The position numbers were made by a program, and so were the translations under genes. The notes beneath the pieces were generated by a model. It ran no database searches. It saw nothing but the letters and a program-made list of their open reading frames with translations, and was not told the origin of the DNA. From the NCBI GenBank assembly GCA_034189385.1, contig JAXHVD010000003.1, forward strand, positions 64,001 to 128,000: a stretch of 64,000 bases of DNA, given 5' to 3'. The first letter of the stretch is position 1. Every line of letters begins with the position of its first letter. This document shows, piece by piece, positions 17,740 through 23,391 of the stretch. The DNA comes from Thermodesulfobacteriota bacterium (GTDB lineage: Bacteria; Desulfobacterota; Desulfobacteria; Desulfobacterales; C00003060).

Positions 17740-18861
17740 ATGGATGCATCACGCAGAGACTTTCTAAAGACGGGCCTGTGCATGGCCTGTGGCGGGCTCC
17801 TTGTCCCATGGCAAAACGCCTGGGCCAAGAAGATTGTCTCCCCCACTGACGCCCACGCAAAGGAGGCCTATTTCTACAAGAAGCTTGCTGATGGCGCAGT
17901 GCAATGCGGTAACTGCCCCCATGCATGCATCATTGCCCCTGGCAATCGAGGAAGATGCCGAACCAGGGAAAACGTGGGGGGACGGCTTTTTAGCATCTCT
18001 TACGGCAATCCGTGCGTGGTGAATGTGGACCCAGTGGAAAAAAAGCCCCTCTTGCACTTATACCCTGGCACTAAGGCCTTTTCTTTGGCCGTAGCAGGGT
18101 GTAACTTTACCTGCCTGAACTGCCAAAACTGGGAGATATCCCAAACCAGTCCGGACAAGACCCGAAATTACAATCTTCCCCCAGAAGAAGTCGTGGCCTT
18201 GGCCGAACAATACGGATGCAAGAGCATTGCCTATACCTATTCCGAGGCCACCACCTTTTATGAGTACATGGTGGACATTTCGGCAGAGGCTCAAAAACGG
18301 GGAATCAAGAATATCTGGGTGAGCAATGCCTATATCAGTCAACCCGCCTTGCATCGCCTCTGCGATGTCATCGATGCCGCCAGCGTTAACCTGAAGAGTT
18401 TTTCAGACAAGATCTATTGGGATCTGAACGGCGGACACCTTCAGCCGGTCCTTGACACCTTCAAGACCCTTCATCGGCGAGGGGTATGGATGGAAATCAT
18501 CAACTTGGTCATCCCCACCTACACCGATGACATGGAAATGATCAAGAGGATGTGTGGGTGGATCTTGGAGAACCTAGGCCCTGAATATCCCCTCCATTTC
18601 TCCCGCTTTTCCCCCCTGTACAAGCTGATCCACCTCCCTCCAACGCCCGTTGAGGTACTGAAACAGGCTGAAGCCGTGGCCTTGAAAGAGGGGCTTCACT
18701 ACGTCTATGTCGGCAACGTCCCCGGCCTGGGTGACAAGACCGTGTGTCCTGGCTGCAAGGAGACGGTGATTCAAAGAAGGGGGTATGGGCTTCTTTGGAA
18801 TCATGTTAAGGATGGAAAATGCAGCTTGTGCGGGACCTCTATAAGCGGCAGGTGGGAATGA
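17740..18861 (+). CDS. amrS: AmmeMemoRadiSam system radical SAM enzyme with Tat signal peptide
   Basis: SRRDFLK twin-arginine motif and AWA cleavage site; DPVEKKPL; CNFTCLNCQNWEIS (CxxxCxxC); AYTYSE; PLHFSRF.P.YKL; YVYVGNV; C-terminal CxxC pairs. Confidence 0.92.
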   Translation: MDASRRDFLKTGLCMACGGLLVPWQNAWAKKIVSPTDAHAKEAYFYKKLADGAVQCGNCPHACIIAPGNRGRCRTRENVGGRLFSISYGNPCVVNVDPVEKKPLLHLYPGTKAFSLAVAGCNFTCLNCQNWEISQTSPDKTRNYNLPPEEVVALAEQYGCKSIAYTYSEATTFYEYMVDISAEAQKRGIKNIWVSNAYISQPALHRLCDVIDAASVNLKSFSDKIYWDLNGGHLQPVLDTFKTLHRRGVWMEIINLVIPTYTDDMEMIKRMCGWILENLGPEYPLHFSRFSPLYKLIHLPPTPVEVLKQAEAVALKEGLHYVYVGNVPGLGDKTVCPGCKETVIQRRGYGLLWNHVKDGKCSLCGTSISGRWE

Positions 18862-20321
18862 TGACCATGCGCATCACGGTCCTCTCAATTTGTCTCGTAC
18901 TCACTTTGCCCATAGCTTCGTCGTACGCCGACACCGAGACCGGGTCAAGCGTGAGACCGGCGATAGTGGCAGGTCTCTTCTATCCCAGCCAGCCCGAAGC
19001 CCTTCGAGACATGGTTGCCAAGCAGTTGAAAGAGGCTGGCGGCGCCAACGTTGCCGGAAGAATCAGGGGGTTGGTCTCCCCCCATGCGGGATATGTCTAT
19101 TCTGGAATTGTGGCTGCCGCTGGATACAGACAAGTGGATCCATCTTTCAAAACCGTCATCCTCCTTGGACCGAGTCATCGATTTCCCCTAAAAGGCGCCT
19201 CTATCCCTGACCTCAAGGCCTACCGAACCCCGCTGGGAGATGTACCACTGGCCAGATTGGCTTTCACGCTTCAAGACGAGCCCCTGGTTGAATCTGTCCC
19301 TCAGGCCCACAGCAGAGAACATTCCCTTGAGGTCCAACTTCCCTTCTTGCAGATCATACTCAAAGATTTCCAGATTGTCCCCATACTGAGCAACAATGCA
19401 GACCCAGAGGCCCTCGCTGCCATCCTGGCCCCTCATATAGGGGAAGACACCCTGGTGGTGGCAAGCTCGGACCTTTCCCACTATCACTCCTATGAAAAGG
19501 CCGTTAGCCTGGACCGCCTTTTCACGGCAGCAGTACCTGCCCTGAAGTTCTCCGACCTATCACAGTGCGAGGCCTGCGGCAAACAGGCTGTCTTGACCTT
19601 GATGCATATTGCCAAGATAAAGGGCTGGGATGGCCTGTTCATCGACTACAAGAACTCTGGCGACACCGCAGGAAGGAAGGACCAGGTTGTAGGATATGCA
19701 AGTATCGCCTTTGTTGACAGAAAGGAGGCATCGAAGAGAATGAACGAAACCCTGCCCACCAAGGATAGAAAAGCCCTCCTTCAGCTTGCCCGCTCTGCCA
19801 TTGAGGCAAAGCTTGTCAAAGGCGCCAGGGTGGAAAGGCCTGCCCCCCTTTCTCCTGCCCTGAAAGAGGTGTGCGGCTGCTTCGTAACACTCCATAAACA
19901 CGGCCAGCTTCGAGGCTGCATCGGGTCTATTGAACCCGTGTCACCCCTTGTTGAATGCGTGGAGAGCAACGCCAAGAACGCTGCCTTTCGTGACCCGAGA
20001 TTTCCCCCCTTGAGTCGAGAGGAACTGGCCGACATAGACATCGAGGTGAGCGTCCTGTCCGTGCCGCAAAGACTAGATTTCACAGATGGAGAAGACCTTA
20101 AGCGTCAGCTTCAACCTCTGGTTCATGGGGTAATCTTGTCTCGTGGTTTCAACCGCTCCACCTTCCTTCCCCAGGTGTGGAAACAGTTGCCAGACAAGGA
20201 GCAGTTCCTGGGACACCTTTGTCAGAAGGGCGGCATGCCTCAAAAGGCGTGGCAGGACCCTGCTGACACCAAGGTGGAAGTATACCAGGCCGCGGTCTTT
20301 GGCGAAAAGGATTTCAGATGA
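18858..20321 (+). CDS. AmmeMemoRadiSam protein B (Memo) - protein A (AMMECR1) fusion with N-terminal signal peptide
   Basis: VRPAIVAGLFYP, PHAGYVYSG, EHSLEVQLPF, SSDLSHY, SGD, VVGY; then FVTL...LRGCIG, AAFRDPRF, STFLPQVW, LCQKGG; ATGA overlap with amrS. Confidence 0.92.
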   Translation: MMTMRITVLSICLVLTLPIASSYADTETGSSVRPAIVAGLFYPSQPEALRDMVAKQLKEAGGANVAGRIRGLVSPHAGYVYSGIVAAAGYRQVDPSFKTVILLGPSHRFPLKGASIPDLKAYRTPLGDVPLARLAFTLQDEPLVESVPQAHSREHSLEVQLPFLQIILKDFQIVPILSNNADPEALAAILAPHIGEDTLVVASSDLSHYHSYEKAVSLDRLFTAAVPALKFSDLSQCEACGKQAVLTLMHIAKIKGWDGLFIDYKNSGDTAGRKDQVVGYASIAFVDRKEASKRMNETLPTKDRKALLQLARSAIEAKLVKGARVERPAPLSPALKEVCGCFVTLHKHGQLRGCIGSIEPVSPLVECVESNAKNAAFRDPRFPPLSREELADIDIEVSVLSVPQRLDFTDGEDLKRQLQPLVHGVILSRGFNRSTFLPQVWKQLPDKEQFLGHLCQKGGMPQKAWQDPADTKVEVYQAAVFGEKDFR

Positions 20322-20430: not shown

Positions 20431-20457
20431 TCAAGGTTTTCGTCCTTGTGCCGATAA
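20431..20457 (+). promoter_or_regulatory. sigma28 (FliA)-type promoter
   Basis: TCAA(G)-N15-GCCGATAA; the -10 octamer is a perfect match to the FliA consensus TAAA-N15-GCCGATAA. Confidence 0.75.
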
Positions 20458-20623
20458 ATAAGTAGAGGGAATCGGCACTTGGATGACTCCGTCTCAAGGG
20501 GGTTAACACCGGAATCGGCACCCCATGAGGTGGAATGTGCGTTTGAATCCCCCTTTCTATAGCAATAGATACGTTCATAGTTGAAGGACCAAGAGAGAAA
20601 CCGAGGATACCACAGGAACGGTC

Positions 20624-22804
20624 ATGCCAGAAGCCGCCGGACATGAAGGTGCTGCCTCCAATAGCCTGAATCAGGACGACATCTCGAAGCTCTTTGGAGA
20701 CACCGGGCAAAACGAAAAAGAGGGGGGGAGTCAGAATCGGGAAGCCGAACCGAGCCAAGACCTAGACCATGGCCCTGTTACCCCTGTCAAGTATCCAGCC
20801 GATGCTGAGGGGCTGGGCGGTGAAGATCACATGGGACAGGGAGAGAGTTTTTCAGGCGTGGACGGATCAGAAAACATTGAAGACGATGAGGTTGAAATCC
20901 AAGAGACTGAAGAACTCCTGGCCCAATTGGAGATCTTAGAAGATGAACCGGTAGACGACAACAGTCATAACGACGCAGAAGAAAATGTACCGGACAGAGA
21001 TGATGTATCTACCAGAACCGATTCTCACGAGAACCCATCATCCGAAAAAGGAGACACAACGGCCGATAAGAAGGAAAAAGGGAATAGCGAGACTGTAAAT
21101 GGCCCTGAAGTGGGGGATCAAGACGCAGAAGAACCAGAGGGCGTGACCGAGGAAGATGAGATCGACGATGACAGGGACCACGAAGGGAGCGTTGAAGAAC
21201 ACGGGGTTGATGCCGAAAGCGATAAAGCGTCTATCACCGAAGCTGGCGATCCTGAGGGTCAAGAGGCGGCTGACCATAAGAAAGACCGGACATCAGCAGA
21301 GAATCCGTTGCAAGAGCAGAAAGATAATGAGTTGTCAGAACCTAATTCCGATCAAGAGCCGTTATCCACAAAAGGGGAGAGGGAGGAAGATGAAAACCTG
21401 GAAGCGGACACCGAGAACCATGACAAAAAGGCCGAAGAGGAGGAAGACCGGGACGTCCCCGAAGTGGTGAACGAGGGAAGGCAGAACGAAGACGACATCC
21501 CCTTGAAAGAGGACGATGAGCACGTGGAAGACGAGCATCGACCAAAGAGGGGAAAAAGGTCTTTGATGCTTCTTATCGGCCTTCTCTCCTGCGTGATAGT
21601 GATGGCCGGGATGGCTGGATGGGTCCTTTATAGAAAAAGATACGTCCCTGAATCTACAAAGAAAAAAGTCCTTGCCCCTGTTCAACAAAGAAACGTCTCA
21701 GTTGGCGAGATGGAGACAGGACTGCCACAGCCCCGCCCATCCCACGTTGCCCGTGGTCCGGCCACCTTGGTGGCCAGGCTCGAGTCCAGGCTTCAGGAAG
21801 CGGCAGACCTGAGGGATGAACTGCTTATCAAGGCAGGGGAGATTGATCAACTCAAGGGCCATTTTTCTGAAAGCATCGCCAAGACAGAAAAGGAAATCCT
21901 TCAAGAGAAAAAAGCGCGTGAAATAAACTCTTACCTGCAAGCCATGAATAACAAGAAAGTCGAATTGGGGTTGCGGACCATCCAGCGCAGAGAGGCCTAT
22001 ATTCGACAACTCGATCAACCCTCGGAGTGGTTGGAAGGGGGGAGCCAAGAGCTACTTTATGTGAGGCGGAAAACCATGATTGAAATGGAGGCGAGCAAGA
22101 TTGCAGGTGACATAGACCTTGAGAGACTGATCGCCGATCTAGGGGGGGTCATCCAAAAGAACCGCCATGGTATGAACAGTCTCACCGTCGACATGGGAAA
22201 GGCCAAGCTGCATTGCCTTGAAACCATATGGACAAGACTGACTGAAGCGGACAACGGGAAGGGCAATGGCGAAACCAATACTAAAAAAAGGGTACCCAAC
22301 GGCCCACCCTTTATAACGGGCAATAGAGATAATGAAATATGGCAAGAGCTCTGCGGTGGAAATTATGCGCGAAAAGGGGAGCTGACCGAGCTTTCAGTGC
22401 CAGCGGCCAAATGTCTCTCCAGAATTGAGGTCTCGGATCTTTTCCTCAATGGGCTGATCCGACTGTCCCCAGAGGCGGCCAAACACCTGATGAAATGGAA
22501 GGGTGACTGGCTTTGCCTAAATGGCCTGAAGCAGGTTTTACCAGAGACGGGAAAAAGTCTGTTTCAATGGCCCGGCAAAGTGATTTCCCTCAATGGTCTG
22601 TCCAGATTTCCTCCCGAACTCGCTCCCCTGCTCCTGAAATGGCAGGGAACCCAGCTTGAGCTCATGGGCCTTGAACCATTAGATGATATCGGCCAACTGG
22701 CAGGGATAAAGGCCTTGGCCCAGTGGGAAGAATCGGGCGGTAAGCTTTATGTTCCTGGTAACATCAGAAAACAGATTGAAGACATCATGGGAAGGAGTGG
22801 ATGA
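20624..22804 (+). CDS. hypothetical bitopic membrane protein: acidic disordered N-terminus, TM helix, helical domain, C-terminal LRR-like repeats
   Basis: ~300 aa D/E-rich region; TM LMLLIGLLSCVIVMAGMAGWVLY; ~24-aa repeats L.LNGL..L.PE.A..L..W.G. Confidence 0.8.
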   Translation: MPEAAGHEGAASNSLNQDDISKLFGDTGQNEKEGGSQNREAEPSQDLDHGPVTPVKYPADAEGLGGEDHMGQGESFSGVDGSENIEDDEVEIQETEELLAQLEILEDEPVDDNSHNDAEENVPDRDDVSTRTDSHENPSSEKGDTTADKKEKGNSETVNGPEVGDQDAEEPEGVTEEDEIDDDRDHEGSVEEHGVDAESDKASITEAGDPEGQEAADHKKDRTSAENPLQEQKDNELSEPNSDQEPLSTKGEREEDENLEADTENHDKKAEEEEDRDVPEVVNEGRQNEDDIPLKEDDEHVEDEHRPKRGKRSLMLLIGLLSCVIVMAGMAGWVLYRKRYVPESTKKKVLAPVQQRNVSVGEMETGLPQPRPSHVARGPATLVARLESRLQEAADLRDELLIKAGEIDQLKGHFSESIAKTEKEILQEKKAREINSYLQAMNNKKVELGLRTIQRREAYIRQLDQPSEWLEGGSQELLYVRRKTMIEMEASKIAGDIDLERLIADLGGVIQKNRHGMNSLTVDMGKAKLHCLETIWTRLTEADNGKGNGETNTKKRVPNGPPFITGNRDNEIWQELCGGNYARKGELTELSVPAAKCLSRIEVSDLFLNGLIRLSPEAAKHLMKWKGDWLCLNGLKQVLPETGKSLFQWPGKVISLNGLSRFPPELAPLLLKWQGTQLELMGLEPLDDIGQLAGIKALAQWEESGGKLYVPGNIRKQIEDIMGRSG

Positions 22805-23391
22805 TGAAACAAGTTATGGGCAGCACCCGTAGAGTCTACCTCTGGGCGTTGTGCTGCTTGTTCACCATCCTGTCTTCAGATCTTGCACTGGCGGTCCATC
22901 CAACGATTTTCACCCTGCAACAAAAGATGGAACAAATCGCGTCCCTGCGTGCAAGCATTGCTGAAAAGGCTGAACAGGGGAGAAGCATTCGTCAACAGTT
23001 CAAAGAACAGATGGAGGCCATAGCCCAAGAGATCAAAGATGAGCAAGAGTGGATGGAAACGAAATCCTATGAAGAGGCCATCCAGTGCCCCCGTATTGAC
23101 TATGATCTCAGACTCCTTCAGCGGTATGATGGCTACCTGTCTGAAATCGATCGAAGGCTCAACTATTATCAGACTTTGGATGTACAGCTGGCCTACCTTT
23201 TTCAGCGGGCCGAGGATGACATGAAGATCATTGAGACATTAAATGACATGGACATAGCCGCTTTGATGATCCGGATCGACAGGGTCCTTAATGAATATCT
23301 TCCTGAAGCTGAAAAGCCGTTGATCCGTGCAAAACACCTTCGGCTGCCTCAGCACGAAGATGTGTGGAATGAAATCGTGAAGCGTTACTAA
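22801..23391 (+). CDS. hypothetical exported alpha-helical protein
   Basis: Sec-like signal ending ALA; ATGA overlap with the upstream gene; homologous to its central domain. Confidence 0.8.
   Translation: MMKQVMGSTRRVYLWALCCLFTILSSDLALAVHPTIFTLQQKMEQIASLRASIAEKAEQGRSIRQQFKEQMEAIAQEIKDEQEWMETKSYEEAIQCPRIDYDLRLLQRYDGYLSEIDRRLNYYQTLDVQLAYLFQRAEDDMKIIETLNDMDIAALMIRIDRVLNEYLPEAEKPLIRAKHLRLPQHEDVWNEIVKRY

Follow-up and report, generated by a model that had tools for sequence, protein, structure and literature searches.

Genes A and B, which overlap within a 64,000-nucleotide stretch of DNA from a member of the Desulfobacteria (the window, meaning the whole stretch analysed), form a real conserved pair that regulation and co-occurrence tie strongly to one flagellar system. 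They make up a sigma28-type operon of the Desulfobacteria FlaF/FlbT-type flagellum; the mechanism that we propose for them is conditional, in that, with a probability of about 0.45, they would build an inner-membrane-anchored periplasmic accessory of the motor. A preliminary description of the locus had presented the pair as uncharacterised, and indeed neither protein scores above the cut-off of any Pfam or NCBIfam family, although A belongs to a family of about 100 full-domain homologues. The gene layout given there also holds, namely a 726-residue bitopic protein with an acidic N-terminus, one transmembrane helix, a helical domain and leucine-rich repeats (LRR), coupled to a 196-residue protein through an ATGA overlap, which we place at 22801 with GGAAGGAG just 5' of gene B. 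The signal peptide of B, predicted by eye and hydropathy to be of the Sec type, covers about residues 1–31. The features are collected in Table 1.

Table 1. Features of the A/B locus, in window coordinates.
Feature	Position	Strand	Description and basis
Sigma28 (FliA)-type promoter	20431..20457	+	-35 TCAAG, 14-nt spacer, -10 GCCGATAA at 20450-20457; read from sequence
Displaced ancestral start region	20581..20623	+	Alignment with relative L122; N-termini of P0009-P0012
Gene A	20624..22804	+	726 aa, predicted N-in/C-out bitopic inner-membrane protein
Candidate CheY-binding FliM-N-like amphipathic peptide, residues 15-24, LNQDDISKLF	20666..20695	+	Likeness to FliM of relatives
Single TM helix, residues 314-335	21563..21628	+	Hydropathy scan; basic residues on N-terminal side
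Periplasmic helical hairpin domain, about residues 382-543	21767..22252	+	AlphaFold2 model; paralogous to B, predicted B binder
LRR solenoid of 24-residue repeats	22319..22789	+	Conserved Cys pair in cap (Cys577/Cys597)
Gene B	22801..23391	+	196 aa; predicted Sec signal peptide and hairpin like that of A
Unused conserved faces			A Lys29/Arg81/Arg82; B Asp108/Asp109 (alignment numbering)

Upstream of gene A, the -35 core TCAA begins at 20431 and is followed after 15 nt by the octamer GCCGATAA, which we take to be the -10 element of FliA, in agreement with the preliminary description. The lone octamer was rejected as evidence of a promoter because it is too common, occurring 6 times in the window, where 1.04 copies are expected, and 130 times genome-wide; the bipartite pattern T[ACT]AAG-N14-GCCGA[TA]A has just 9 sites per 4.13 Mb genome. 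Among 30 loci of about 12 kb, comprising 29 orthologues and the window, 12 of the 13 strict bipartite sites fall at most 300 nt 5' of gene A. When one deviation is allowed, the motif is found at 19 of the 28 loci having upstream DNA (window included), versus 10 of 1970 background windows. This pattern was defined only once these loci had been inspected, and a separate held-out test was therefore made on loci of family f16, for which 40 of 41 additional loci were fetched and 38 had upstream DNA. The motif with at most one deviation is present at 27 of these 38 loci versus 8 of 986 background windows, and with at most two deviations at 35 of the 38 versus 120 of 986. The clear misses of the first set are four A genes fused to CheX, all of which sit 3' of a same-strand HDOD kinase gene, and the loci of genomes G210 and G074. 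As a positive control, the flagellar regions of relatives (260 kb) hold only two strict sites, both of them before flgM (G074 and G079), and this control supports the FliA identity of the -10 element. The promoter stands out as a conserved island within diverged flanking DNA when compared with a 79%-identical relative. A scan for sigma70 promoters and terminators gave nothing above chance.

The distribution of the genes points to the same system. Gene A is present in 29 of 250 other genomes of the class; FliA occurs in all 29 of these carriers versus 147 of the 250 class genomes overall, FlbT occurs in 23 of them, and A is found in 23 of 31 FlbT-positive genomes versus 6 of 116 genomes with FliA and without FlbT, figures which, like all co-occurrence and profile counts given here, overstate the association because kin genomes are not independent. 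Within family f16, where A occurs in 52 and FliG in 49 of 56 genomes, every FliG-positive genome (49/49) carries A, all four A-less genomes lack FliG, and three genomes have A without FliG. The tandem-CheX part of a CheX-CheX-FliN gene finds a match in 27 of the 29 carriers and in 16 other genomes, and the carriers possess a divergent flagellin adjoining flbT and flaF. Judged by these sequence comparisons, the A/B operon is a marker of the FlaF/FlbT-type flagellar system. On the other hand, eight FlbT-positive genomes stay A-negative even by profile search and 118 of the 147 FliA-positive genomes are without gene A; the operon is dispensable for flagella in general.

The two genes travel together. 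B follows A in 27 of 29 genomes, the exceptions being one contig end and G079, which is without B, and it does so at all 40 additional f16 loci. In a sample of 250 genomes of the phylum, matches besides G000 were obtained only in G004, which is of the same class, and in G520, where a 163-residue B-like piece on a 1.7-kb contig is the sole piece from outside the class. The neighbours of A/B vary among genomes and the loci lie mostly outside flagellar clusters; in the window, an AmmeMemoRadiSam-type gene pair on the 5' side and a radical SAM gene with aro genes on the 3' side are none of them flagellar. In G210, A/B stands at the end of the flagellar cluster, 5 kb away from the CheX-CheX-FliN gene, and is oriented divergently to motA-motB-slt. 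Promoter conservation, the flgM control, the presence of FliA in every other carrier and the position in G210 together uphold the earlier assignment to the late-flagellar (sigma28) regulon. At the level of the family, we regard membership of A/B in this regulon as very probable.

Sigma28 regulons include non-motor genes, and A/B could therefore be under sigma28 control and serve motile cells outside the motor, for instance in adhesion to surfaces, in remodelling of the envelope where the flagellum exits or in defence against phages. This would fit the absence of homology to known motor parts in our sequence and structure searches; the near-perfect co-retention of A with fliG in f16 and the C-ring- and CheY-type modules borne by the tail of A argue against it, and we consider it rather improbable.

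Residues 1–313 of protein A contain 33.5% Asp and Glu and are followed by residues rich in Lys and Arg. Across 127 members of the family, the flanks of the transmembrane helix carry on average 3.6 Lys and Arg before and 1.8 after it. This charge bias, together with the conserved Cys pair of the LRR cap, fits an N-in/C-out topology, with an acidic region that would be cytoplasmic and whose length varies from 24 to 480 residues in the family. The AlphaFold2 model of residues 375–726 (pLDDT 91.4) consists of a helical hairpin and an LRR solenoid: the hairpin, of 50 residues, is accompanied by two short helices and followed by the repeats, and the LRR ectodomain has invariant Trp, Asn and Gly positions. 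Foldseek returned no match at E≤0.001 for the models of A or B; its top rows for A are LRR proteins, all weaker than E 0.001 and indicative of a generic LRR only. The profile of A yielded only short coiled-coil matches among PDB sequences (E≥0.1), and an ESM Atlas search gave leads only, every score being below 0.9. The term trans-envelope, previously applied to the module, is too strong, as nothing indicates that it touches the wall or outer membrane.

The model of B (pLDDT 91.8) is an A-type hairpin alone. A VIA search with it gave generic helical bundles (best Z 11.1), and for hairpin polymers of the ESCRT-III/PspA kind the best Foldseek row has E 0.084 and TM 0.43. Comparison of B with the hairpin of A by hhalign gives 99.3% probability, E 1.7e-20, over 165 columns. 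In a tree of 56 rows, with database B rows left out and a midpoint root used for drawing only, A and B separate once (support 100/99) and each follows the family groups. By alignment and tree, B is an ancient paralogue of the periplasmic hairpin of A, derived from one old duplication.

Secreted B is moreover predicted to bind the hairpin to which it is related. The complex of the A hairpin and B modelled with ESMFold2 scores 0.77, the best control scoring 0.01 (the mark used is reached by 116 of 157 solved pairs versus 2 of 215 mismatched pairs), although the paralogy of A and B and the use of alignments built in this analysis may have raised this score. Contacts agree 100% between runs and the pLDDT of the partners is at least 87. 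The predicted interface is asymmetric: the distal half of the second helix of A packs against the tip half of B, with A Arg108 and B Tyr70, Leu74 and Tyr81 among the residues predicted to take part. The equivalent faces left unused in A and B are also conserved and are of opposite charge, with A Arg81 and B Asp108 invariant, which suggests that A and B may alternate as a polymer. These residues may instead pair inside each single chain.

The acidic tail carries three kinds of module among the 127 members, a FliM-N-like peptide in 23, a related amphipathic helix repeat in 15 and an N-terminal CheX domain in 7, which are never found together in one protein; 82 members have none. These counts include near-duplicates and rest on patterns composed after looking at the sequences. 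The FliM-N-like motif is expected only 0.2 times from shuffles. FliM of G074 and G079 starts LSQEEIDALL, and the strict form of the motif occurs in only two ORFs of the source genome, gene A being one. In Caulobacter FliM, mutation of an Ile-Asp pair abolished Cle binding according to PMC5677366; the window peptide has Ser at the Asp position of this pair. Protein A of the window contains no CheX domain. Where CheX domains are fused to A, they are recognized by Pfam CheX and are nearest, in the comparison made, to the CheX-CheX-FliN gene (E down to 2.5e-35), and their ExxN motif is intact in one of seven and missing in six. Given the Ser of the window peptide and the mostly degenerate ExxN, CheY binding is no more than plausible.

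These modules could also be read as the output of a chemoreceptor-independent sensor, in which the LRR would bind a periplasmic ligand with B as soluble co-receptor, and clustering of A would alter the capture or dephosphorylation of CheY-P by the tail. The invariant Trp, Asn and Gly of the ectodomain, the CheX fusion in seven members (one with ExxN intact) and the predicted A–B binding would all be accommodated. However, a disordered linker of 100–450 residues lies between the transmembrane helix and the output modules, which would suit a tether better than signal transfer, and most members are without an output module; we hold this sensor to be quite improbable.

If A and B do build a motor accessory, they would be expressed late, under sigma28, in the FlaF/FlbT-type flagellar system, and B would assemble with the A hairpin in the periplasm, where the unused conserved faces would allow an arc or ring of alternating A and B to form close to the stators and the LRR would contact another component of the motor or the wall. 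The long disordered acidic tail would hold CheY-interacting modules, either FliM-N-like peptides or a CheX-like domain, near the C-ring, and these modules might buffer or tune local CheY-P. Promoter recurrence, co-occurrence with FliA, FlbT and FliG, the motA-motB context of G210, the tail modules and the predicted complex speak for an accessory of this kind; against it, the link to the stators comes from one genome of 29, the location at the motor is one that we infer, and 82 of the 127 members are without tail modules. The most specific version, an alternating A/B periplasmic ring whose A tails present decoy FliM peptides or CheX at the C-ring and so couple the scaffold to CheY-P, seems unlikely. 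If true, one undescribed module would join motor scaffold and local CheY-P control in an alphaproteobacteria-like (FlaF/FlbT) flagellum of sulfate reducers.

It is useful to compare the pair with known systems. For the Campylobacterota motor scaffold PflB/PflA, PMC11392913 describes PflB as a bitopic N-in protein that has a linker and, in the periplasm, a solenoid of repeats, and its partner as a periplasmic protein with a signal peptide, so that PflB/PflA and A/B have in common the layout of a bitopic N-in protein and a secreted periplasmic partner. PflB and PflA use TPR solenoids, whereas A has a hairpin and LRR and B is a paralogue of the A hairpin, and the cytoplasmic part of PflB is 61 residues long, against the 313-residue acidic tail of A with its CheY-type modules. 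Neither a TPR nor a Pfl family match was found in A or B with Pfam and NCBIfam, nor any PDB sequence match under E 0.1. FliL is an N-in bitopic flagellar accessory, as A is predicted to be; the NCBIfam FliL match to A is weak, covers nothing but the transmembrane region and reaches 14 bits (E 0.03), the cut-off being 179, the FliL domain is absent from A, and carriers keep separate fliL genes. As for FliM, CheX and FliY, the tail motif of A matches the CheY-binding N-terminal peptide of FliM in relatives, but in A these modules are attached to a membrane protein, are optional, being present in 45 of 127 members, and are mostly degenerate.

The preliminary description had compared A with polar landmark proteins such as HubP/FimV. 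According to PMC12918733, these share with A a single transmembrane helix, a long acidic cytoplasmic region and a link to motility, but the order is reversed in A, the acidic region being N-terminal and the folded part (LRR) C-terminal, and A/B, unlike HubP/FimV, is preceded by a sigma28-type promoter and couples A to a secreted paralogue. Searches with Pfam and NCBIfam at E≤1 detected no LysM, FimV or C-terminal cytoplasmic FimV/TPR domain in A, whose model contains only the hairpin and LRR; membership in this group is thus not borne out. PflB/PflA would be the closer analogue, without homology. A functional resemblance without kinship is a separate matter: A/B might be a sigma28-controlled polar landmark that places chemoreceptor arrays or CheY/CheX off the motor body. 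The disordered acidic cytoplasmic region of such variable length, the CheX and FliM-N-like modules of the tail and the position of most loci outside flagellar clusters would agree with this. The lack of a detectable LysM or other wall-binding domain, a domain order opposite to that of FimV as described in the text cited, the pairing of one locus with motA-motB (G210) and a sigma28 timing that would be more natural for a part added last than for a landmark already in place weigh on the other side, and we judge a landmark unlikely.

An accessory of the motor would be in keeping with what is seen elsewhere. Lineage-specific motor accessories (MotX/Y, FlbB, PflA/B) account for much of the diversity of flagellar motors. 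Class-specific scaffold parts are a known pattern according to PMC7990780. Among the papers reached by our literature search, none described a motor accessory for Desulfobacteria or the A/B pair. A/B is a concrete candidate for such an accessory, being nearly universal in the flagellated members of f16 (49/49) and offering a predicted interface open to mutation. The CheY-type modules of its tail, which can be swapped, suggest a tuning of the switch that is absent from known scaffolds, and the operon flags a FlaF/FlbT-type flagellar system in sulfate reducers.

The source genome itself requires a separate reading. The preliminary description had named orthologues in genomes without fliA or flagella as evidence against the flagellar link: all other carriers have FliA, and the exception is the source assembly, in which no fliA, flhA, flagellin, cheA or flbT was found and in which tblastn with the flagellar clusters of relatives detected no core flagellar gene. 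The absence of fliA is indecisive because the essential rpoD was not found either, which means that the assembly, 90.4% complete, has real gaps. Since in G079 the genes from fliF to flgL, fliA and cheA all lie on one 72-kb contig, a single gap could remove most flagellar genes. Satellites are kept in the assembly, namely the CheX-CheX-FliN gene, cheW, MCPs and a TPR gene that has a sigma28-like site and whose homologue adjoins flagellin in G169. A search with FlbT homologues tied no flagellar gene to close relatives. Among 36 congeners, FliG occurs in 22, and FlbT and full-length A in none; the congeners therefore have a different flagellar system.

The start of gene A is displaced relative to that of close relatives, which lies 14 codons (about 15 residues) 5' of the ATG used here; the equivalent TTG at 20581 is 2 nt out of frame with gene A, and an in-frame TGA stands 14 codons 5' of the ATG. 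Among the indel rows listed from the Logan contigs, for which run X1 may be the source, none falls in the start region. The paralogy of B and the A hairpin, this displaced start and the absence of fliA from the assembly had all escaped the preliminary description.

The operon of the source genome thus either serves a flagellar cluster that is unassembled or remains as a relict from a cluster that was lost. If the flagellar cluster and fliA have gone and the operon stays behind as a non-functional relict, a view compatible with any reading at the family level, this would explain why core flagellar genes, fliA and cheA were not found, and signs of decay are present: the start codon that A had ancestrally no longer lies in frame, an MCP fragment precedes cheW on contig C56, and the block that matches the position of the flagellar cluster of G085 lies mid-contig on C18 with non-flagellar neighbours. 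The gaps of the assembly and the single-contig arrangement in G079 count against it, as do the intact ORFs of A and B, the promoter conserved in the 79%-identical relative and the sigma28-like sites retained by other satellites. We consider a relict possible, at somewhat less than even odds.

Contamination of contig C23 was also considered and rejected, because AroC encoded in the window is 78–80% identical to that of three congeners versus 48–64% for two other families; the contig is native to the genus.

In genomes without A, the acidic-tailed bitopic membrane protein of the two-gene A/B operon, the genes lying directly 3' of fliA at four loci encode products with long acidic N-termini in which 'SQDDIDALL'-like motifs are repeated. 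These N-termini apparently precede a FliL-like end, and the genes would apparently represent A's tail module, the FliM-N-like, candidate CheY-binding peptide, on a different membrane protein. A Pfam search with one partial ORF of this set gave no match.

The FliY-like CheX-CheX-FliN fusion has matches in 44 of the 251 class genomes, most of those genomes also carrying A/B. Its gene in the window's own assembly (G000) sits apart from any flagellar cluster.

The placing of flagellin beside flbT, flaF and TPR-rich genes is an arrangement known from alphaproteobacteria; it is found here in sulfate reducers, and FlbT is present in 31/251 class genomes. A homologue (51-52%) of the TPR protein encoded on contig C4 of G000 adjoins flagellin in genome G169, with a strict sigma28 site. 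The ORF behind the minus-strand sigma28-like site on contig C56 presumably belongs to the isopropylmalate-synthase-like family. Only three sigma factors, all ECF-type, were found in G000, and none of RpoD or RpoH type was found in the whole assembly (completeness 90.4%).

Within the window, a gene for a spermidine-synthase-like membrane protein precedes the AmmeMemoRadiSam pair.

Features in the window, elsewhere in G000 (C, contigs) and at fetched loci (L)
Feature	Location	Strand	Remark
Gene directly 3' of fliA	L048:1-1367; L050:2184-3088; L051:1-1469; L043:2203-2642		genomes without A
CheX-CheX-FliN fusion, stand-alone, FliY-like	G000:C7:97613-98986 (= L009:814-2184)		both ExxN motifs intact
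Divergent flagellin adjoining flbT and flaF, with TPR-rich genes	L088:11917-14387; L142:18445-19278; L143:469-1300		sulfate-reducer genomes
Tandem array, ~8 near-identical 593-aa ORFs	L143:3904-19849 (G169)		immediately beyond flagellin locus
TPR protein gene	G000:C4:5452-6678		sigma28-like site upstream
Sigma28-like site, spacer closely resembling the window's	G000:C56:72356	minus	precedes isopropylmalate-synthase-like ORF
Sigma28-like site	G000:C56:113017		precedes gene for OmpA-domain-like protein
Radical SAM gene, then Memo-AMMECR1 fusion (AmmeMemoRadiSam system)	window 17740-20321
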